From the NCBI GenBank assembly GCA_050015075.1, contig JBEKCB010000009.1:1-64000 (forward strand): a stretch of DNA of 64,000 nucleotides, read 5' to 3'. The DNA comes from Candidatus Brocadiia bacterium (GTDB taxonomy: Bacteria > Planctomycetota > Brocadiia > CAIUPP01). Below the pieces are notes generated by a model that saw nothing but the letters and a program-made list of their open reading frames with translations, searched no databases and was not told the DNA's origin. Shown here piece by piece: positions 19,581 through 64,000 of this stretch. Position 1 is the first letter of the stretch. Each line of letters opens with the position of its first letter. Made by a program: the position numbers and the translations under genes.

Positions 19581-19612
19581 GCGGGCAGCGAGCGGCGCGT
19601 CTCGGGCAAAAA

Positions 19613-19697
19613 TCGTCGTCGTCCTCGTCGTCGTCCTCGTCCTCGAACGGCCGTTAGCTCCAGCCGAGGACGAGGACGACGACGAGGGCGAGGACGA
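19613..19697. repeat. GTCCTC/GAGGAC-armed palindromic element, copy 1
   Basis: (GTCCTC/GTCGTC)n arm, core CGAACGGCCGTTAGCTCCAGCCGA, (GAGGAC/GACGAC)n arm. Confidence 0.85.
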
Positions 19698-19716
19698 AGA
19701 CCACTACGAGCGGAGA

Positions 19717-22815: not shown

Positions 22816-22845
22816 CCCTGCGGCGGGCCGTCGCGCCGTAACCAA

Positions 22846-22924
22846 TCGTCCTCGGCCTCGTCCTCGTCGTCGTCCTCGGCTGGAGCTAACGGCCGTTCGA
22901 GGACGAGGACGACGACGAGGACGA
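22846..22924. repeat. GTCCTC/GAGGAC palindromic element, copy 2
   Basis: Core TCGGCTGGAGCTAACGGCCGTTCG is the exact reverse complement of the copy 1 core. Confidence 0.85.
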
Positions 22925-22936
22925 AAGAGGAACTTC

Positions 22937-28366: not shown

Positions 28367-28476
<110 letters not shown>

Positions 28477-28542
28477 TCTAAAGCGTGCCCGGATTATAGG
28501 CCCGCTGAAATCCCCTGTCAACGAGGCCGGAGGACAGCCCGA

Positions 28543-44269: not shown

Positions 44270-44289
44270 CACCATCGGGCCGCACCCAA

Positions 44290-44390
44290 TCGTCCTCGTC
44301 CTCGTCGTCGTCCTCGTCCTCGAACTGACGTTTAGAACGACCGAGGACGAGGACGACGACGAGGACGGTTACGAGGACGGCGATTACGAT
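44290..44390. repeat. GTCCTC/GAGGAC palindromic element, copy 4
   Basis: Core CGAACTGACGTTTAGAACGACCGA. Confidence 0.85.
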
Positions 44391-52677: not shown

Positions 52678-52679
52678 AT

Positions 52680-52772
52680 ATCGTCCTCGTCCTCGCTCTC
52701 GTCCTCGTCCTCGGTCGTAACTAACAGCGGTTCGAGGACGACGACGAGGACGAGTATGAGGACGAGGACGAT
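52680..52772. repeat. GTCCTC/GAGGAC palindromic element, copy 5
   Basis: Core on minus strand CGAACCGCTGTTAGTTACGACCGA; lies between coaC and coaB. Confidence 0.85.
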
Positions 52773-53449: not shown

Positions 53450-53568
53450 ATCGTCCTCGTCGTCGTCCTCCGCCCTCGTCCTCGTCCTCCGCCCTCGTCC
53501 TCGTCCTCGTCCTCGTCGTCGTCCTCGTCCTCGAACCGCCGTTAGTTACGACCGAGGACGAGGACGAT
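53450..53568. repeat. GTCCTC/GAGGAC palindromic element, copy 6 (expanded left arm)
   Basis: Core CGAACCGCCGTTAGTTACGACCGA. Confidence 0.85.
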
Positions 53569-53634
53569 CTAGCGCGGGCGACGCCATTTCTGCTATCCGC
53601 CGCGTTTCCCCGTTTCTCTTGCGCCTCTTCGCGG

Positions 53635-56248: not shown

Positions 56249-56418
56249 GATGCAGGAATCGAGCGCGTCGGACCAGGGCAGTCCTTCCATGGACCCATGG
56301 ATGAAGGCATCATCAACACGCCCGCTGAGCCATGCGCTCGGTTCCTGCGTCGCCTGCCGAAGTTAATCCTTTCCTTTGCCGACCTATTACCTGATCAGGA
56401 GAGGACTCTGGGCGAGAC

Positions 56419-56447
56419 TTGAAAGCTTGAAGCCAGAGGGGTAGTAT
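56419..56447 (+). promoter_or_regulatory. sigma70 promoter for the DUF4160-DUF2442 pair
   Basis: TTGAAA-N17-TAGTAT, ending 6 nt before the ORF. Confidence 0.65.
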
Positions 56448-56453
56448 CGTGTC

Positions 56454-56702
56454 CTGAGTCCAACGCTATTCACGTGGAAAGGGTACCGGTTCTTCTTCTT
56501 TTCGCGCGAAGAGCCACGTCCTCATGTTCACGTCACTTGTGCCGACGGTGAAGCGAAATTTTGGTTGGGGCCAGCCGTTTCCCTGGCGAAGAACTACAGA
56601 CTGTCAGGGTCGGAAGTGTCAAAGTTGAAGAAGGTGGTGGAGGAAAAGAAAGATGAGATCGTCCGTGCCTGGAACGACCGCTTCCAAGGTCGAAGTCACT
56701 AA
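56454..56702 (+). CDS. DUF4160 family protein (putative toxin), CTG start
   Basis: Manual translation: (M)SPTLFTWKGYRFFFFSREEPRPHVHV..GEAKFWL..IVRAWND; absent from the ORF track. Confidence 0.8.
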   Translation: MSPTLFTWKGYRFFFFSREEPRPHVHVTCADGEAKFWLGPAVSLAKNYRLSGSEVSKLKKVVEEKKDEIVRAWNDRFQGRSH

Positions 56703-56946
56703 CGTCGGCTCGTTCGGCCTGTGGATTCTCCTCCAAGGGAAGGAATATTTCCTGCCCTATGAACAATATCCCTGGTTCAGGGAAGCCCGGATCGCCGACG
56801 TCCTGAACGTCGCTCTTGTGCATGAGGATCATCTGCACTGGCCGGCGCTGGATGTTGACCTTTGCGTCGAGTCACTGGATCACCCCGAAGACTTCCCTCT
56901 GATTTACAGAGACCGCGCCGCCGCATCCAAACGCCGCGCCAAGTAG
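56653..56946 (+). CDS. DUF2442 family protein (putative antitoxin)
   Basis: EVTNV..FGLW..EYFLPY..YPWF..LHWPALDVDL..L.HPE.FPL. Confidence 0.82.
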   Translation: MRSSVPGTTASKVEVTNVGSFGLWILLQGKEYFLPYEQYPWFREARIADVLNVALVHEDHLHWPALDVDLCVESLDHPEDFPLIYRDRAAASKRRAK

Positions 56947-57002
56947 ACCGCGCTGCGATTCTCAGCCGCAGAGTACCCCTAGCGATATTTCGATTTTCAG
57001 GC

Positions 57003-57052
57003 TTGACATGGATGCGAGGGAATATTACTCTGTAATGCAGAGTGCTCTGTAA
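57003..57052 (+). promoter_or_regulatory. sigma70 promoter overlapped by a palindromic operator
   Basis: TTGACA-N17-TACTCT; inverted repeat ACTCTG-TAATG-CAGAGT (57027-57043) plus a second CTCTGTAA. Confidence 0.7.
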
Positions 57053-57088
57053 GCTCCCGTCGGCCAGCATAATTTGGAGGCCACTGTG

Positions 57089-57727
57089 ATGGAAATTTCT
57101 TCGGAGGAGGCCCGGGAATCACTGGCGCAGGCGCAGGATGCGGCCGCGCGCACGCGGAAGCTGCTGGCCTGTCGCGGGGCGGATGCGCTGTTTGTGGTCT
57201 GGGGCTTGGTCTGGTTCCTGGGTTACCTGGGAACTGACTTAGCGCCCCGGCTGCTGGCGCTCGGGAAAGGCGGCGAGGACCGCGGAGAGACGGCCGTCTG
57301 GATCGTGAACGGGATATGGCTCGCCCTGATCGCTCTCGGCATCGTGGTTTCTGTCGCCGTGTGGAAACGACGCTCGCCGACGAAGACGAGCAGCGGAGCG
57401 CGGTTGGGCTGGTTCTGGCTGCTGCTTTACGTCTATGTGAGTGTCTGGATCTTCCTCCTCTGGCCGTTCATCAAGGTCGAGGGCGCAGCGGAATCCGTTC
57501 GGTTCGGGCGGCACATGGGCGCCATCGAAGCGACGGTGCCGATGTTCGCATACGTGGTGATGGGACTCTGGCTCGACCACTTCATGATCTGGATAGGACT
57601 CGCCATAACCGGGCTGACGGTGCTCGGCCTGTTTCTGGCACCGGCCTGGTTCTGGATCTGGATGGCGGTAATGGGCGGCGGCTCGCTCGTCAGTACCGGC
57701 TTTTTGATCCGCAACCGCTGGAGGTAG
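57089..57727 (+). CDS. Multi-pass membrane protein
   Basis: N-terminal helix EEARESL, about 6 TM segments, WGLVWFLGY. Confidence 0.75.
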   Translation: MEISSEEARESLAQAQDAAARTRKLLACRGADALFVVWGLVWFLGYLGTDLAPRLLALGKGGEDRGETAVWIVNGIWLALIALGIVVSVAVWKRRSPTKTSSGARLGWFWLLLYVYVSVWIFLLWPFIKVEGAAESVRFGRHMGAIEATVPMFAYVVMGLWLDHFMIWIGLAITGLTVLGLFLAPAWFWIWMAVMGGGSLVSTGFLIRNRWR

Positions 57728-57729
57728 CC

Positions 57730-58023
57730 ATGGGCCGCATTGACGAGGTTATACACCAGTCGCTGCGCTTGCAAATCATGGCGTCGCTGATCACTCTCGA
57801 TCCGCGGCAGTCGGTGGATTTCGTTTATCTGCGCGACCTGCTCAAAGCCACAGACGGCAATCTCGGCGCGCATCTGGAGAAACTGGAGGCGGCAGGCTAC
57901 GTGAAGATCGAGAAGACTTTCGTCGCGCGAAAACCGCGCACGTTCGTTTCGGCCACAGCGAAAGGGCGCACGGCGTTCGAGGAGCACGTGGCGGCGCTCA
58001 AGACGATTCTGAACATGAAGTGA
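57730..58023 (+). CDS. Winged-helix transcriptional regulator (HTH_34/MarR-like)
   Basis: DEVIHQ.LRL.IMA.L, DF..LR..L.ATDGNL.AHL.KLE.AGYV, PRT..T.KG..AF..H. Confidence 0.88.
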   Translation: MGRIDEVIHQSLRLQIMASLITLDPRQSVDFVYLRDLLKATDGNLGAHLEKLEAAGYVKIEKTFVARKPRTFVSATAKGRTAFEEHVAALKTILNMK

Positions 58024-58134
58024 CGCTGCTCGAGGCAGTCATTTCCAGCTTGACTATCGCAGCCGTTCGTTGTGACTATTCGCGGGACATCAAACCTATT
58101 TGGCAGCCCGGCTTCAAAGCGTGAAGGACACGCG

Positions 58135-58267
58135 TGGCCATCTCGTAACTCCAACATGCCCCTCCGGCTCCTCTTTCCGATCAGGCGCGCGAGGGTTGGG
58201 TCTGGGCGTATCGTTTCACAAGTCAGCCGAAAAACCGCTTGGCGACGGACAACTGTTACAGTACACT
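58135..58267 (+). repeat. Cargo-leader module, copy 1 (att-like scar + promoter)
   Basis: CTCCGGCTCCTCTTTCCGATCAGGCGCGCG..GGCGTATCGTT..TTGGCG-N17-TACACT. Confidence 0.8.
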
Positions 58268-58321
58268 CTCGCCTTTAAAAGCGAGCCCTCCTTCGGAGAA
58301 CGGTCAAATGGGAAATCCCGG

Positions 58322-60253
58322 ATGAAGCGACCCATGACATCCGACAACCGCGCCGCAGCACCACAGACCCTCTGGGTTATGCTGGCCTGCGCGTGGATTC
58401 TGGTCGTCGCGGTCGTGGTTTGGGCGAACGGCCTGAAAGGCCCTTTCATCTTTGACGATCTCATCGCGATCCGAGACAATCCGACCCTCCGCCATTTTCC
58501 CGCCTGGGAGAATTTCGTCCCGCCGCATGAGAACTCGCTCTCCAGGAGGCCGGTTGTAAACCTCACGCTCGCGCTCAACTACGCCATCGGCGGCCTCGAC
58601 GTGCGCGGGTTTCACGCCGGGAATCTGCTCATCCATCTGCTGACGGCGCTGCTGCTCCTCGGCATCGTCCGCCGCACGTTGAACGAATTGACGATGGACC
58701 CCGGACGACGGACGATGGTCCATGCTCCCTCGTCCATCATCGCCGTTTCGTTTGCCGTGGCGCTCATCTGGGCGGTCCATCCCTTGCTGACCGAACCGAT
58801 GGACTACTTGACTCAGCGCACCGAACTGCTCATGGGCCTCTTTTTTCTGCTCACCCTGTATTGCGCGGTCCGCGGCGCGTCCAGCGGGCATCCCCGGCGA
58901 TGGCACGCAGCCGCCATCGCCGCCTGCGCCCTGGGCATGGGCTCCAAAGAAGTCATGGCCGCCGCCCCGGTCATCGTCCTGCTGTACGACCGATGCTTCC
59001 TGTCCGGCTCGTTCCGGGAGGCGTTGCGCCGGCGCCTCTCCTTGTATCTCGGACTGGCCGCCACCTGGGCGATCCTCGGTGCGCTGATGATCGCATATCC
59101 CTGGGGCGGCGGAACCGGCGCCGGGTTGGGCCTGGTGGGGATCGGACCGTGGGAATACGTGCGCACGCAGCCGGGCGTCATTCTGAACTACCTGCGGCTG
59201 AGCTTCTGGCCGAGTTCGCTGTGCCTGGACTATGGCTGGCCGATCGCGACGAGCGCAGGGCAGATTTTCCCGGCGGCGGCCGTCATCGCGGCGATGCTCG
59301 GCGCGACGTTGTGGGCGCTGAGCCGGAGGCCGGCGTTCGGATTCCTGGGCGCGTGGTTTTTCCTGATCCTGGCGCCCACCTCGACTTTCGTGCCGATCGC
59401 CGACGCGGCGGCCGAGCGCCGGATGTACCTGCCGCTGGCGGCCATCGTGACGTCCTGCGTCCTTGCGGCCTATTGGCTCGGCGACCAATTGGTCCGCCAC
59501 GTGGCCGAAGACGTCGGGACGCGCAAACTCCTCGGAAGAGTCCTGGCGGCTCTGGCGCTCCTCCTTGTAACGGCCGCACTGGGCTATCGGACGTTCGAGC
59601 GGAACGCGCTTTACCGCGACGCGATTTCCATCTGGCAGGATACGGTCACCCAGCGCCCTCGGAATGCGCGCGCGTGGGGCAATCTGGGCATGTGTTACGT
59701 TGATGCCGGCCTTCCTGGCGAGGCCGTGCCATGCTTCAGCCAAGCCATCGAATTGAAGCGGGACAACTCCACGGCGTACAGCAACCGAGGGAGCGCCTTC
59801 ATCCACAATGACCGCGGCATCGCCTTCGCCAGGATGAACCGCCTCGACGAAGCGGTCCAGGACTACGACACGGCCATTGCCCTGAACCCGGATTATGCCG
59901 AGGCATACGTCAACCGTGGCGCCGCCTATGCGGACTCCAACCGTTTCAATGAGGCCCTCCAGGACTATAGCCGGGCTGTTGCGCTGCAGCCCGATAACGC
60001 TCGCGCCTACAGCAACCGCGCTGTGGTGGGCCTGCGCACCGGCCGCTTCAATGAAGCCCTGTCCGATTGCGACAAGGCCATCGCGCTGCAACCTGACTAC
60101 GCCAATGCCTACCTTAACCGCGCTTACGGCCGGTACCTGGTGAAAGAGTTCGACAAAGCCCTCGCCGACTTGAACACCTGTGTGCAACTGGGCGGCAAGC
60201 CGGATCCTGAATTTATCGGGAAGGTTCTGCAAGCCGCCGGACAGGCGAAATAA
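58322..60253 (+). CDS. TMTC-like GT-C glycosyltransferase with C-terminal TPRs
   Basis: FIFDD, RPV, FH..NLLIH, WAVHPL.TE, QR.ELL, SKE, WP..L..DY, ERRMYLP, RN..Y..W, TPR repeats. Confidence 0.85.
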   Translation: MKRPMTSDNRAAAPQTLWVMLACAWILVVAVVVWANGLKGPFIFDDLIAIRDNPTLRHFPAWENFVPPHENSLSRRPVVNLTLALNYAIGGLDVRGFHAGNLLIHLLTALLLLGIVRRTLNELTMDPGRRTMVHAPSSIIAVSFAVALIWAVHPLLTEPMDYLTQRTELLMGLFFLLTLYCAVRGASSGHPRRWHAAAIAACALGMGSKEVMAAAPVIVLLYDRCFLSGSFREALRRRLSLYLGLAATWAILGALMIAYPWGGGTGAGLGLVGIGPWEYVRTQPGVILNYLRLSFWPSSLCLDYGWPIATSAGQIFPAAAVIAAMLGATLWALSRRPAFGFLGAWFFLILAPTSTFVPIADAAAERRMYLPLAAIVTSCVLAAYWLGDQLVRHVAEDVGTRKLLGRVLAALALLLVTAALGYRTFERNALYRDAISIWQDTVTQRPRNARAWGNLGMCYVDAGLPGEAVPCFSQAIELKRDNSTAYSNRGSAFIHNDRGIAFARMNRLDEAVQDYDTAIALNPDYAEAYVNRGAAYADSNRFNEALQDYSRAVALQPDNARAYSNRAVVGLRTGRFNEALSDCDKAIALQPDYANAYLNRAYGRYLVKEFDKALADLNTCVQLGGKPDPEFIGKVLQAAGQAK

Positions 60254-60336
60254 GGCGAACCTGGTCACCCTCCACACGCCCCGTATCGCCATAGACACGC
60301 TCCTCGGAAAAGGTCCGGTTCGCCGTAACGTGCTAG

Positions 60337-60462
60337 ATGGCCGGCCAAATAGGTCGGTTGACAAACCGCTCCGGCTCCTCTTTCCAATCAGGCGCGCGTG
60401 GGCGTATTGTTATCCAGAACGGCCGAGAAACAACTTGACGGTGGGCACGCTTTGAGTACAAT
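60337..60462 (+). repeat. Cargo-leader module, copy 2
   Basis: ATGGCCGGCCAAATAGGTCGGTTGACAAACCGCTCCGGCTCCTCTTTCCAATCA..TTGACG-N16-TACAAT. Confidence 0.85.
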
Positions 60463-60561
60463 ACTGTCGCCGCGAACGACAGCCGAAGGCGCAAAAGCCG
60501 CCGCAAGGCGTTAATTCTTAAAGCTCCTGACCTCTTTATATGCCGCACGGGAATACTGGGG

Positions 60562-61428
60562 ATGAAGCGGATACTCATCCTGCTGCATGAGCACTTCAAA
60601 CACGAACAGTATCTTATCTATCGTCTCCGCGAGGCGTGGCAGAAACAGGGGCTGCACGTATCATGTGTTTACGGCATTAGAGACCGGCCCGAGGCAGACC
60701 TGCTGATTCCGCACGTTGATCTGACGCGAACACCTCCCGAATACATCGAGTACATCCGATCCTATCCCAACGCCGTCAACCGCAATGTGGTGGATATCTC
60801 CAAGCGCAGGATCAGCGCGAACCTGCTTCGCGGTGACGAGGACTTCCGCGGGCCGGTCATTGTGAAGACCGACAACAACTCGGAAGGCGGCTCGGAGGAG
60901 TTCCTGTACCGATGCCGGCATCCCCATCTCGCGTGGCTCCGGGGGAAAGCGAGCGCGGTCCAGGCGCATCTGGCCGGGCATCGTTCCACGGCGCGGAGTG
61001 GTCTGCACGAATATCCTGTCTACAGCAGCCTGGCGGAGGTTCCCGCCGGCGTGTTCAGAAACCGGGCGCTCGTGGTGGAGAAGTTCCTTCCGGAGAGAGA
61101 GGGCGATCGCTACTTCGTGCGTGTGTACGTTTGCCTGGGCAGTCACACACAAAGCATCCGCATCGCCGACTCGAAGCCCTTCGTGAAAAGGCCCGCGGCT
61201 CGGCAGGTGGACGAAGGACTTGAGGTTCCCGAGCCGGTGCTGGACCTGCGCCGCCGGATCGGCTTGGATTATGGCAAAATTGATTACACGATTCATGAGG
61301 GGCAGGTCGCCATCCTGGACGTGAGCCTCACGCCGGGGTGGTCTGCCGGGACTGAGCTGACGGCGCGCACAGTCGGCATCCTGGCGGGCGGCATCTGGTC
61401 GCTGCTGCCGAACCAGGGAAATACTTGA
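60562..61428 (+). CDS. ATP-grasp-like hypothetical protein
   Basis: DISKRRIS, GPVIVKT, LVVEKFLPE, GLDYGKIDY..ILDV..TP. Confidence 0.7.
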   Translation: MKRILILLHEHFKHEQYLIYRLREAWQKQGLHVSCVYGIRDRPEADLLIPHVDLTRTPPEYIEYIRSYPNAVNRNVVDISKRRISANLLRGDEDFRGPVIVKTDNNSEGGSEEFLYRCRHPHLAWLRGKASAVQAHLAGHRSTARSGLHEYPVYSSLAEVPAGVFRNRALVVEKFLPEREGDRYFVRVYVCLGSHTQSIRIADSKPFVKRPAARQVDEGLEVPEPVLDLRRRIGLDYGKIDYTIHEGQVAILDVSLTPGWSAGTELTARTVGILAGGIWSLLPNQGNT

Positions 61429-61605
61429 CGCATGCGACCTGTTCAGGACGGAGCGCGTTTGGACAAGACCGCAGGGATGATGCTCGCGCCCTTCCCTCAA
61501 GGTCATTCGGCTCGCTTGCCTCCCGGAAATGTCGGCCGAAGGCCATGAGCCGTTCGACGTTGCTAGCGGCCCTGAGTCCATCGAAGGGCGAACGAAGCGA
61601 GTTGA

Positions 61606-61741
61606 ATGGCCGGCCAAATAGGTCGGTTGACAAACCGCTCGGGCTCCTCTTTCCAATCATGCGTGCGAGGGGTGCGCGTGCGCGTATCGTTTTACAGAAC
61701 AGCCGGGAAAAACTTGAAAACAGGCTCTTTGAGAGTACAAT
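61606..61741 (+). repeat. Cargo-leader module, copy 3
   Basis: 53 of first 54 nt identical to copy 2; ends in TTGAAA-N16-TACAAT. Confidence 0.85.
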
Positions 61742-61828
61742 GTTATCGGAGCGATCGGCAGTCTAAGAGGGAAACGCCGTTGGAAGTCGGGCGGGGAAAG
61801 CGACAATAGGTGATGTCCCAAATTAGTA

Positions 61829-62311
61829 ATGACAATACTTATGAAAACATCGTGCAATATCGCCAGGCCTGATTTTATCTTGCAGGTTGAAGCGATCGAG
61901 CCATCGAACACTGGTTTTCTTAAAAACCGGCCGTGTCGGCTAATACTTGCAGATGGGAAAGCTGTTGAACGTGCGATTTGCGTGGAAGATCATCGTGGAT
62001 TCTCAGGCAAGTGGTGGATCCACCCGGAATGCGTCGCAAGGATTGAGGCGTCACGAGAGAGGATGCCGGCGAACCTCGCATCCAAGTTGTACGTCGCAGG
62101 CGAATCAGGAATGGGTTACCAGATATTCAAAGTTAAAATGAGAGACGGCACATCCTATCCGTTCCTTACCGGGAACATCGTTGATTTTCCGGATTTCCCT
62201 GAGGGATACAGCACGGATGATGTCGTGGAAGTATACCCGCACGAAGGAAGATACGAATTCGGCCTGAGGCGGAGCCGGAGTTTCAAGTGGTGTTTCTATG
62301 TTAAAGAATGA
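61829..62311 (+). CDS. AT-richer hypothetical protein
   Basis: 160-aa ORF with PC...L.DG, LY.AGESGMGY, TGN.VDF, V.PHEGR motifs. Confidence 0.65.
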   Translation: MTILMKTSCNIARPDFILQVEAIEPSNTGFLKNRPCRLILADGKAVERAICVEDHRGFSGKWWIHPECVARIEASRERMPANLASKLYVAGESGMGYQIFKVKMRDGTSYPFLTGNIVDFPDFPEGYSTDDVVEVYPHEGRYEFGLRRSRSFKWCFYVKE

Positions 62312-62354
62312 ATCTCCTGCGGAATTCGGCGGACACCATAGGCAACTACGGATG

Positions 62355-62455
62355 AACTCCCAACACCCAACATCGAACGTCCAACGCCCAGGTACTCGCG
62401 CAATCCGAGCCGCCGACTTGGACGTTGGGCGTTCGGCGTTGGATGTTGAGCGTTG
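62355..62455. repeat. Heptamer-armed palindrome (same family as 20616-20703)
   Basis: caacacccaacatcgaacgtccaacgccca ... tggacgttgggcgttcggcgttggatgttg. Confidence 0.8.
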
Positions 62456-62800
62456 ATCCGTTCATGCCTGAGCATCCGGGACCTGAACCTGGGGTGATTC
62501 AGGAACAATATAACATTCGAACAACCGGAATTGCCAGCCGGGAAGTCGCCTGAAACAGCGTCCCGACGGCTGCGGTATCTCTGGCGCATCGCAGCGCCAG
62601 GGAGCCAGACCGCGGCGGCGCCGCTGCTCGCGGTGATAGGGAGAGACACCGAACCGACAGATCGGGTCGCAAACTTGGATGATTTGGACTATACTCCCAT
62701 GCATTCCGTTTAGAGGCACATCGAGGGAAGTTGGCGCCTTCGGCACATGCGGGATCGTGACATGAACATGGCTGGTCAAAATGAGTGACAGGAGACTGCG

Positions 62801-64000
62801 ATGATGATTCGCTCGGCGCGCTGCAAGGCGTTTTGCGTTTTCGTCCTGGCGGCTGGAACGCTCCTATGGGCGGGCCAGTCTTTTGCCGCGGTGCGGTTGG
62901 CGCGGCTCTTCGGCGACGGGATGGTGCTGCAGCGCGAGATGCCCGTGCCGGTCTGGGGTTTTGCGAAGGCGGGCGAGAACGTGACGGTCCGCTTCGGTGG
63001 CCAGGAGAAGTCGGCGACGGCCGACGCGAGCGGCAAGTGGATGGTCCGCCTCGACGCGATGCCCGCAAGCGCGTCGCCGCGCGAGATGACCGTCGCGGGC
63101 GAGAACACACTGACGCTCAAGGACGTGCTCGTCGGCGAAGTGTGGCTCTGCGGCGGCCAGTCGAATATGGAGATGACGGTCAACAACAGCTTGAACTTCG
63201 ACGCCGAGAAAGCCGCCGCGACCAATTCCGCCATCCGCCAGGTCAAGGTCCCCCGCAGCGTAGCCGCCGCGCCGAGGGACGACCTGAGCGATTCGCCCGG
63301 CAATTGGGTCGTCTGCGCTCCGGCGACCGTCGGGCAATTCACCGCGGCGGGCTACTTCTTCGCGCGCGAGATCGCGAAGGCGCTCGACGTGCCCGTCGGC
63401 CTGATCAACGATTGCTGGGGCGGCACGTCCATCGAGCCGTGGACGCCGGCGGAGGGATTCCGGCTGGCGACATCCGATCCGCAGATGCGAGACATCAGCC
63501 GCCTGGTGGATTCGTGGAACCCGACGACCGACGCCGGCCAGGAGGCATACCGCCGGTATCTCGCGCAGGTCAAGGAATGGCTTCCCGCGGCCGAGGCGGC
63601 GGTCGAGGCGAAGCGCGTCCCGCCGCCCGCCCCGAAAACGCCGGAGCCTGCGCCGAACAACGGCCAGCCGACGTACCTCTTCAACGCCATGATCGCGCCG
63701 GTGATCCCCTGCGCGATCCGCGGCGCGATCTGGTACCAGGGCGAGGCCAACGGCGCCGAGGGCATGGTCTATTTCCACAAGATGAAAGCCCTCGTCGGCG
63801 GCTGGCGCCAGCTCTGGGGCCAAGGCGATTTCCCGTTCTACTACGTCCAGCTCCCCGGCTGGCAGCGGTCCGACCCGGCCAAGCCCGCCGGCGGCGACGG
63901 CTGGGCGCACCTGCGCGAAGCCCAGCTCCGGTTCCTCGCCTTCCCCAACACCGGCATGGCGGTGGCGATTGACCTCGGCGAGGCCGACGAAATTCACCCC
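62801..64000 (+). CDS. Sialate O-acetylesterase (SASA) family protein, 3' end outside window
   Basis: Manual translation: signal peptide, LFGDGMVLQRE.PVPVWG, VGEVWLCGGQSNME, PVGLI..WGGTSIEPW, GAIWYQGEAN, FPFYYVQLP, LREAQ. Confidence 0.9.
   Translation, partial: MMIRSARCKAFCVFVLAAGTLLWAGQSFAAVRLARLFGDGMVLQREMPVPVWGFAKAGENVTVRFGGQEKSATADASGKWMVRLDAMPASASPREMTVAGENTLTLKDVLVGEVWLCGGQSNMEMTVNNSLNFDAEKAAATNSAIRQVKVPRSVAAAPRDDLSDSPGNWVVCAPATVGQFTAAGYFFAREIAKALDVPVGLINDCWGGTSIEPWTPAEGFRLATSDPQMRDISRLVDSWNPTTDAGQEAYRRYLAQVKEWLPAAEAAVEAKRVPPPAPKTPEPAPNNGQPTYLFNAMIAPVIPCAIRGAIWYQGEANGAEGMVYFHKMKALVGGWRQLWGQGDFPFYYVQLPGWQRSDPAKPAGGDGWAHLREAQLRFLAFPNTGMAVAIDLGEADEIHP

Follow-up and report, generated by a model that had tools for sequence, protein, structure and literature searches.

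Repeated modules in a Brocadiia genome: a probable large serine recombinase gene tail with promoter, heading cassettes probably inserted at a tRNA-Gln end

Organisation of the array

We analysed a stretch of 64,000 nt (the window; C9:1-64000) from the genome of a Candidatus Brocadiia bacterium (G000; 4.64 Mb in 66 contigs, 64.7% G+C), in which an earlier note, made from the letters of the stretch, had described three homologous modules, each directly upstream of a different accessory gene. From our comparisons the module is probably the tail of a large serine recombinase (LSR) gene together with a promoter, and the modules head cassettes that were most likely inserted by site-specific recombination at the end of a tRNA-Gln gene. 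We assign this explanation a probability of about 0.72.

A nhmmer profile was built from the three window copies and iterated on the whole G000 genome. It placed the modules at 58132-58280, 60337-60472 and 61606-61751 of the plus strand (E 3e-28 to 4e-38), as the earlier note had indicated. Within their first 54 nt copies 2 and 3 have a single mismatch, so that the 53 shared nucleotides counted before are correct. In the 79-nt family D5 of a repeat finder, copies 1 and 3 are 61% and 87% identical to copy 2, respectively.

The module consists of a 5' half of about 100 nt, part A, which starts at a 7-nt core, and of part B, which holds a promoter-like site and is followed by a leader and the cargo gene. 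The sequences flanking a core are termed arms. A right arm at a core is either the module (M) or the tRNA-Gln 3' end in antisense (T). Among the left arms four types are recognisable: the recombinase tail (P), the tRNA-Gln flank (B1), B2, and a hairpin arm (B3). The array is composed as follows:

56362-62800 (+): variable island; the congener G001 has a different 1.4-kb insert in its place and is about 91-93% identical in the flanks
58130-58229 (+): module copy 1, part A (M arm); degenerate core ACGCGTG at 58130-58136, then a remnant of the LSR C-terminal extension, open in the frame given in the note
58239-58267 (+): copy 1, part B; weak promoter-like site TTGGCG-17-TACACT, 8/12
58268-58321 (+): leader type 1, common to many other copies; ends at the start codon
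58322-60253 (+): cargo 1, 643 aa; C-terminal TPR repeats in Pfam, N-terminal part without match; stop codon 60251-60253
60264-60336 (+): P arm, about 25 last LSR codons, close behind the cargo 1 stop and in frame with copy 2
60337-60425 (+): module copy 2, part A; core ATGGCCG at 60337-60343, then M arm with an 11-nt internal deletion
60435-60462 (+): copy 2, part B; promoter-like site TTGACG-16-TACAAT, 10/12
60463-60561 (+): leader type 2 of copy 2, conserved
60562-61428 (+): cargo 2, 288 aa, no Pfam match
61501-61605 (+): B1 arm; three collinear blocks like the ~105 nt following tRNA-Gln(CTG), C6:148921-149025
61606-61705 (+): module copy 3, part A; core ATGGCCG, then M arm
61714-61741 (+): copy 3, part B; promoter-like site TTGAAA-16-TACAAT, 10/12
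61742-61828 (+): leader type 2 of copy 3, conserved
61829-62311 (+): cargo 3, 160 aa, AT-richer, no Pfam match
62348-62463 (+): B3 arm, a long inverted repeat; its right half (62419-62463) abuts the core, likewise in four other strong copies
62464-62496 (+): core ATGCCTG and T fragment, antisense of the tRNA-Gln 3' end; downstream end of the array

Part A is related to the end of a large serine recombinase gene

It had been stated that one reading frame runs without gaps through all three modules. The three peptides quoted are exact and lie in a single frame; copy 2 has its deletion just past the quoted stretch. For 28 copies the ratio of nonsynonymous to synonymous differences (pN/pS) in part A was 0.63 in this frame, while the shadow frame had 0.75 and the remaining four had 0.99-1.09. 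The column entropy at codon positions 1, 2 and 3 was 0.74, 0.63 and 0.88 (permutation p 0.014); since the copies are interrelated, both tests overstate independence.

No long G000 protein with the module peptide was found when all stop-to-stop frames were searched with hmmsearch; the frames returned were all short (33-261 aa). When 1.84 billion representative proteins were searched with a profile made from 27 module peptides, 17 matched, and in 15 of these the motif stands at the C-terminal end. In one of these proteins, P0005, the motif is fused in frame to an LSR C-terminus. The longer relatives of P0005 (P0018-P0020) are large serine recombinases of 425-540 aa with the domains PF00239, PF07508 and PF13408, and P0019 and P0020 end in ...RNAL(N/D)G.

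The metagenome contig L094 encodes an intact LSR of 540 aa with the domains Resolvase (PF00239), Recombinase (PF07508) and Zn_ribbon_recom (PF13408). Its frame continues over the core (...GAT GGC TGG) into a diverged M arm, and its 34-residue extension matches the module peptide profile (hhalign probability 96.5%, E 8e-10). On contig L095 the same kind of gene ends GAT GGC TGA, and directly behind it comes a tRNA-Gln-like 3' end in antisense. Because the L094 frame crosses the core and its extension matches the module profile, part A is, judged by homology, the last ~35 codons of an LSR gene, lying beyond the 7-nt core ATGGCYG. Upstream of the intact LSR, L094:42-6849 contains defence-type genes (GmrSD, T5orf172/ResIII, Eco57I-like methylase pieces).

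In the window itself the stretch 60264-60336 translates as VTLHTPRIAIDTLLGKGPVRRNVLD. In a BLASTP comparison with the translation of 60255-60452, the part encoded by 60264-60395 aligned across the core to residues 482-524 of the L094 LSR (E 4e-10), and to residues 482-507, the last 26, of P0020 (E 1e-7). The locus thus has the C-terminal homology, and the full-length relatives have the domains, of a large serine recombinase; an intact catalytic LSR gene is absent from the locus, where about 25 codons remain before the copy 2 core. The recombinase-gene tail suggested in the earlier note is supported by pN/pS, entropy and the L094 and P0020 alignments: the frame is real and the recombinase is of the large serine type. 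At the level of sequence, homology is established for part A, for the LSR tail before copy 2 and for the tRNA-Gln flank before copy 3.

We considered whether part A could instead act as a structured RNA, be it a small RNA of its own or, for the gene upstream, a 3' untranslated region or terminator. Part A contains a GC-rich hairpin in which some changes are compensatory (3/4 predicted pairs), and a terminator scan picks it up in copy 3; the stem-loop described on the minus strand of copies 2 and 3, followed by GGCCGGCCA, is visible in the sequence. RNAalifold on 37 copies, however, predicted just a 4-pair hairpin at -1.3 kcal/mol, the variation has a period of three, and Rfam gave 0 matches at the gathering score in the window and none at E<=10 in 57900-62000, which includes the modules and leaders. 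We rejected this candidate as extremely unlikely.

It had also been suggested that the module stems from a tRNA 3' end in antisense, with RNSN in copy 1 resembling the RDSN of an antisense T-arm. ARAGORN found 0 tRNA genes in the window, and none on L094-L096; like Rfam, it had no match on the module. The argument fails because the tRNA-like sequence lies in the second kind of right arm, T, and not in the module.

Part B, the leaders and the cargo genes

The LSR frame of the module stops inside the -35 region of the promoter-like site. A promoter scan found 5 sites in 6.6 kb, compared with 1.8 +/- 1.1 in shuffled sequences, and these include the sites of copies 2 and 3. A promoter had been proposed in all three modules; for copies 2 and 3 (10/12) this was borne out, whereas the site of copy 1 (8/12) falls under the scan threshold. 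At the expected place, 23 of 36 module copies have a match of at least 10/12, and a second module subtype carries an extra ~45 nt ahead of the promoter. By the scan and the site scores each module in the window has, as had been noted, a promoter-like site facing its cargo. Part B is a putative promoter followed by a conserved leader, and the module promoters presumably fire.

Two types of conserved leader connect the module promoters with the start codons of genes that are unrelated to each other, type 1 behind copy 1 and type 2 behind copies 2 and 3. Type 1 has a short palindrome directly ahead of the start codon. Leader regions were also seen downstream of modules elsewhere, e.g. behind C10:83585-83682 and C12:14078-14221.

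The labels TMTC-like glycosyltransferase and ATP-grasp protein given to cargo 1 and cargo 2 were guesses and find no support in Pfam: at E<=0.001 there was nothing in the 288-aa and 160-aa proteins, and TPR repeats alone in the 643-aa protein (58322-60250). Cargo 1, a TPR membrane protein, is a member of a large paralogous family; its paralogs form tandem arrays in the G001 contigs C16, C57, C123 and C89, with 66-78% DNA identity. A metatranscriptome contig of 268 nt matches 60651-60917 in cargo 2 without a mismatch, which is no proof of transcription; the contigs of the RNA library cover parts of the stretch only, and the uncovered parts are uninformative.

The module family in the genome

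The modules are not confined to a single local array. In G000 we counted 40 copies at E<1e-6 on 20 contigs (57 copies at E<=0.01), with more clusters on C25, C32, C8, C4, C10 and C57. The module was searched for in 31 genomes (own, genus, family, order and class) and is present in two of them, G000 and its single congener G001. In 32 of the 40 copies the gene downstream is co-directional, according to crude gene calls. The 146 open reading frames around module copies are functionally unrelated by Pfam and have no common function; among them are a nonribosomal peptide synthetase, GH123, GNAT, FGE-sulfatase, DUF899, a beta-helix protein, an IS110 transposase and many without a family.

The lack of a common function among the downstream genes argues against a regulon, in which the upstream half would be a transcription-factor site, for example the palindrome ATGGCCGGCCAT, that co-regulates the module-headed genes. 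Such a 12-bp palindrome does stand at the start of copies 2 and 3, and promoter and leaders downstream are conserved. The palindrome is, however, the core region of the attachment (att) site and is lost in many copies, and the conserved half varies codon-wise and is homologous to the LSR C-terminus. We regard a regulon as very unlikely.

An ordinary dispersed repeat would be another explanation for this distribution. A promoter-bearing pseudogene of a recombinase tail would have been multiplied through homologous recombination, transposition or gene conversion and would persist where it drives a useful gene, with no serine recombination involved. The many copies on many contigs of a single genus are in line with it, and their orientation toward the downstream gene fits selection for promoter use. 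Terminal inverted repeats or target duplications were not noticed in the alignments of ends and flanks; no formal test was run for them. The composition of the arms at the cores speaks against a dispersed repeat.

The core, tRNA-Gln(CTG) and the exchange of arms

The only tRNA-Gln(CTG) gene of G000 lies at C6:148851-148924. Its 3' end, ...CCTCAGCCA, is the antisense of the core, and the TGA which ends the shorter LSR relatives at the core is likewise the antisense of this 3' end. An att-type core derived from a tRNA 3' end, as proposed before, is hence found at the 5' edge of the module.

Each of P, B1, B2 and B3 was found with both M and T, and the switch occurs at the 7-nt core. Sites with the same left arm and the other right arm have pairwise identities of 62-88% on the left and 40-55% on the right; sites with the same right arm have 42-60% on the left and 70-98% on the right. 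Genome-wide scans with arm profiles gave 5 matches for P, 6 for B2, 2 for B1 and 10 for B3. All P, B2 and B1 matches and the best 5 of the 10 B3 matches have a core with an M or T arm directly behind, and C33:2410 and C3:202735 are sites among the matches that had not been seeds. Clustering of the left arms with blastn-short, and the arm profiles on the flank set, recovered seed members only. The B1 arm of the window, 61501-61605, is the best genome-wide match of the tRNA-Gln(CTG) 3' flank (blocks of 26/27, 18/18 and 21/23).

Nine T sites were identified, the native tRNA-Gln gene and the window site included. The T fragment of the window (62471-62496) matches the antisense tRNA-Gln end, and likewise the other T arms, in 19-20 of 26 nt; random genomic 26-mers had a mean of 12.6 and a 99.9th percentile of 19. 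Outside the native gene, 7 of 8 T fragments have a module on the same strand 858-5139 nt upstream, and a random oriented site would have such a module in about 2.3% of cases.

The pattern of arm identities and the core-bounded arm matches point to arms exchanged at the core by site-specific recombination. In the alignments the exchange at the core and the position of the modules upstream of tRNA-like fragments in the same orientation are evident. A dispersed repeat does not account for four unrelated left arms meeting both right arms at the same 7 nt, nor for tRNA-Gln-like fragments downstream of the arrays in the same orientation, nor for the authentic tRNA-Gln flank before copy 3. The earlier note had named a repeat scattered through the genome, of the repetitive extragenic palindrome (REP) kind and without any link to recombinases or tRNA ends, as one case that would overturn its interpretation. 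The modules are indeed scattered, but the link exists in the form of the LSR tail and the tRNA-Gln core. A dispersed repeat is in our judgement unlikely.

Variation between genomes

The region between the flanks is variable between relatives, as had been expected. G001 matches the window up to 56361 and resumes at about 62802-62804. At the position of the island it has instead an insert (L043:2697-4085, on G001:C128) with an AT-richer gene for 155 aa without a family and a DUF1828 gene for 261 aa. Among the assembled contigs of the peat metagenome run X10, one joins 58068 to 62800, and the letters between were not seen. Contig joints with short sides (58194>58296, 58326>60343 and others) are probably due to paralogous copies or other organisms and were not used. 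On C32 G000 has two extra cassettes in comparison with G001, and the junctions lie in short microhomologies.

These data bear on the possibility of a live integron-like system, in which units of M arm, promoter and gene would still be moved singly at the cores by a serine recombinase acting in trans. In its favour, left and right arms are joined in the way that exchange at a single core would produce, the units are of small size and in several of them no remnant of a recombinase is seen, the cargo differs between G000, G001 and the metagenome variant, and G000 does hold one intact LSR. This LSR (C14:73755-75497, locus L087), however, is just 41% identical to the module-linked clade, lies at a tRNA-Ala gene and has a different tail. 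Moreover, no examined difference breaks at a core, the module copies are 61-87% identical to each other rather than near-identical, and no circular junction was seen in the assembled contigs. Since the differences to G001 and the metagenome variant do not break at cores, the integron-like mobility that had been proposed is not supported for the present day, and the recombinase in trans that it called for was found neither in G000 nor in G001. We consider a live system quite unlikely.

The last codons of the C14 LSR overlap the 3' end of tRNA-Ala(GGC) in antisense, which is the same architecture at another tRNA gene.

A proposed route from recombination to arrays

We favour the explanation that the module is one attachment-site arm of a family of integrative elements moved by an LSR, with a promoter and a leader behind that arm. 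The crossover core ATGGCYG would lie inside the recombinase gene, about 35 codons ahead of its stop. When P arm, core and M arm are joined, the reading frame of the LSR would span the core and part A and end in the -35 region, and the promoter behind the M arm would face the cargo, with the recombinase at its back. The two halves of the LSR gene would be parted by recombination with the tRNA-Gln(CTG) 3' end. After integration the body of the LSR would end ...DG-TGA, with TGA being the antisense of the tRNA ...TCA, and the M arm with its promoter would land in front of the cargo, on the opposite side of the insertion. Insertions would have been repeated beside older ones (tandem accretion), and the recombinase genes deleted afterwards. 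The resulting array unit would comprise M arm, promoter, leader and one or two genes, spaced by LSR-tail remnants, tRNA flanks or the hairpin arm, with a tRNA-Gln-like fragment at the end of the array. The window would contain one such array of three units. The division into element arms and host arms is made here with some reserve, and accretion is the presumed route to the arrays. Taken together, the earlier interpretation by tails, an att site at a tRNA end and promoter supply is largely borne out.

Several observations weigh against this explanation. Where synteny ends in the G001 loci examined, it does so near module positions 63, 87, 96-98 and 143-149 or else within microhomologies, and never at the core, as would be expected for homologous or illegitimate recombination of a dispersed repeat. 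The breaks of the X10 variant, 58068 and 62800, likewise differ from the core positions 58130 and 62464. Breakpoints away from the cores make the recent events look like ordinary deletions or rearrangements. No cognate LSR was found in G000, where the C14 LSR is the closest homologue besides tail remnants, nor in 40 relatives, of which G001 had no match at E<=1e-30 and the other 39 had matches of at most 37% identity; the assemblies of G000 and G001 are incomplete (93.6% and about 91%). A pattern scan of contigs for a cognate LSR matched 104 stretches, none of which was confirmed.

The arm classes have weaknesses as well. The left arms of 20 of 30 M copies and 3 of 9 T sites fit no class, and the left-arm classes were first picked out by eye. 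Most T arms are only about 25-31 nt long, and they may be element-borne tRNA mimics instead of real pieces of the tRNA gene; with T arms this short, any assignment of the sites to attP, attB, attL or attR would be tentative. The units are bounded by cores with exchange of arms, and the core equals the 3' end of a host tRNA, as in elements that target tRNA genes, but adjacency to the target gene and att-bounded differences between strains, which such elements would have, were not observed. No module lies near the native tRNA-Gln gene on C6, the window array has no adjacent target tRNA gene, and arrays occur at at least 8 loci distant from the single native tRNA-Gln(CTG) gene. As canonical LSRs are known to recombine attP only with attB, accretion requires an extra assumption. 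The subthreshold promoter of copy 1 and the interrelated copies behind the codon tests count here, too.

With no cognate LSR and no differences that break at cores, the arrays look like decaying remains, fossils of tandem accretion and not a working system, and they are probably immobile now.

The favoured explanation accounts for a genus-specific repeat as the footprint of a recombination system, not as a REP or a regulon site, and it shows a way for insertions to bring along their own promoter and leader. It would also be a bacterial serine-type case of a recombinase gene that contains its own attachment site and continues beyond it in a conserved coding stretch.

A more far-reaching interpretation, which we offer as speculative and rather doubtful, is that the LSR reports its own state. 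The free or joined form would have the conserved extension of ~35 residues encoded by part A, and the integrated form would be cut to ...DG by a stop codon that comes from the antisense tRNA-Gln 3' end. The two isoforms could differ in activity or direction, which would give the enzyme a possible switch of direction of its own and make a further directionality factor unnecessary. Through the tail displaced with promoter and leader, each insertion would become a cassette that expresses itself, and cassettes that lack a recombinase and end in the B3 hairpin arm would be moved in trans, as a serine-type counterpart of integrons. If the isoforms do differ in activity, this would be a new control of the direction of serine integrases, which are widely used tools of genome engineering.

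Comparison with known systems

The closest case among those described appears to be that of the ssrA islands of Dehalococcoides. According to the report on these islands, a serine recombinase of ~540 residues, DsiB, targets the 3' end of ssrA; the 3' end of its gene invariably overlaps attL, the stop codon lies past the island boundary, and the overlapping part of the recombinase is called divergent and probably non-functional (McMurdie et al. 2011, PMC3146451). Tandem islands are bounded there by repeats of the target 3' end, and 15 islands without an integration module are read as cis-mobilizable elements gathered by accretion (PMC3146451). Common to both systems, as far as that account goes, are the ~540-residue serine recombinase, the 3' end of a small stable RNA as target and the gene overlapping the att site. 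Unlike the islands as described, the target here is tRNA-Gln(CTG) and not tmRNA, the units comprise one or two genes and not many kb, and the arrays lie at at least 8 loci and not behind one target gene. In addition, the frame beyond the core is conserved here as protein, and the same arm carries promoter and leader.

Recombinase-less segments between att sites that arose from adjacent integrations are reportedly also known from the ICESt1/ICESt3 family, said to have been treated by Pavlovic et al. in 2004; these elements are said to have tyrosine integrases and a single kind of att, the repeated site being without recombinase tail or promoter. Arrays of recombinase-less segments separated by att sites are the likeness to this form of accretion; the serine type, the two kinds of right arm and the tail and promoter in the repeated site are the differences. 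In integrons the tyrosine recombinase IntI acts on folded attC hairpins located 3' of promoterless cassettes, which have one common promoter. The present arrays resemble them in architecture alone, as arrays of unrelated single-gene cassettes between recombination sites. The remnants here are of the serine type, the site is 5' of the gene and has its own promoter, and no attC-like fold was obtained with RNAalifold on the 37 copies. In mycobacteriophage BPs, with its tyrosine integrase, the repressor gene is said to span attP, so that the free and integrated products differ in their C-terminus; here it is the recombinase itself whose gene spans the attachment site.

The tycheposons of Prochlorococcus are described as cargo elements at tRNA genes, in which repeated integration pushes the older elements inward; their islands contain scattered fragmented integrases and partial tRNAs, and 27 of 937 elements have an LSR while most have tyrosine recombinases (bioRxiv 10.1101/2020.12.28.424599). 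A conserved arm that bears a promoter and a recombinase frame across the att site set the present modules apart from tycheposons as described there. The suicidal archaeal integrases of the SSV type have the recombination site inside their own gene, which is split by integration (PMC8371274). As portrayed in that source they are tyrosine recombinases split mid-gene and inactivated, whereas the bacterial serine LSR here would lose only about 35 C-terminal residues.

Keyword searches of the open-access literature returned no description of a serine recombinase whose frame runs on across attP in a conserved overhang, which is no proof of absence. In the cases cited above the overhang is described as a non-conserved overlap (Dehalococcoides) or as the splitting of a gene (archaeal tyrosine integrases). 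What sets the present case apart from the ssrA islands is the overhang conserved as protein together with promoter and leader, and units of one or two genes at many loci.

Further observations

The left part of the island (56445-58023) contains a DUF4160/DUF2442 pair, followed by a 212-aa protein without a family and an HTH_34 regulator. A pair resembling the latter two, 221 aa and HTH_34, stands behind a module on C52.

At C12:14078-15565 (locus L062) the gene of an IS110-family transposase (PF01548, PF02371) starts 265 nt past a complete module, and the module region may be an insertion target. Four URO-D-like genes (PF01208) were found beside modules, at C4:206386-207477, C17:33-647, C25:24708-25913 and C32:60677-61870. 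Three of them are immediately upstream of a module, and the C32 gene is immediately downstream of a truncated module.

The window also contains six palindromic repeats of ~91 nt (D1) with GAC/GAG-type triplets, at 19611-19701, 22844-22934, 28389-28479, 44288-44378, 52679-52769 and 53499-53589, which are unrelated to the module.

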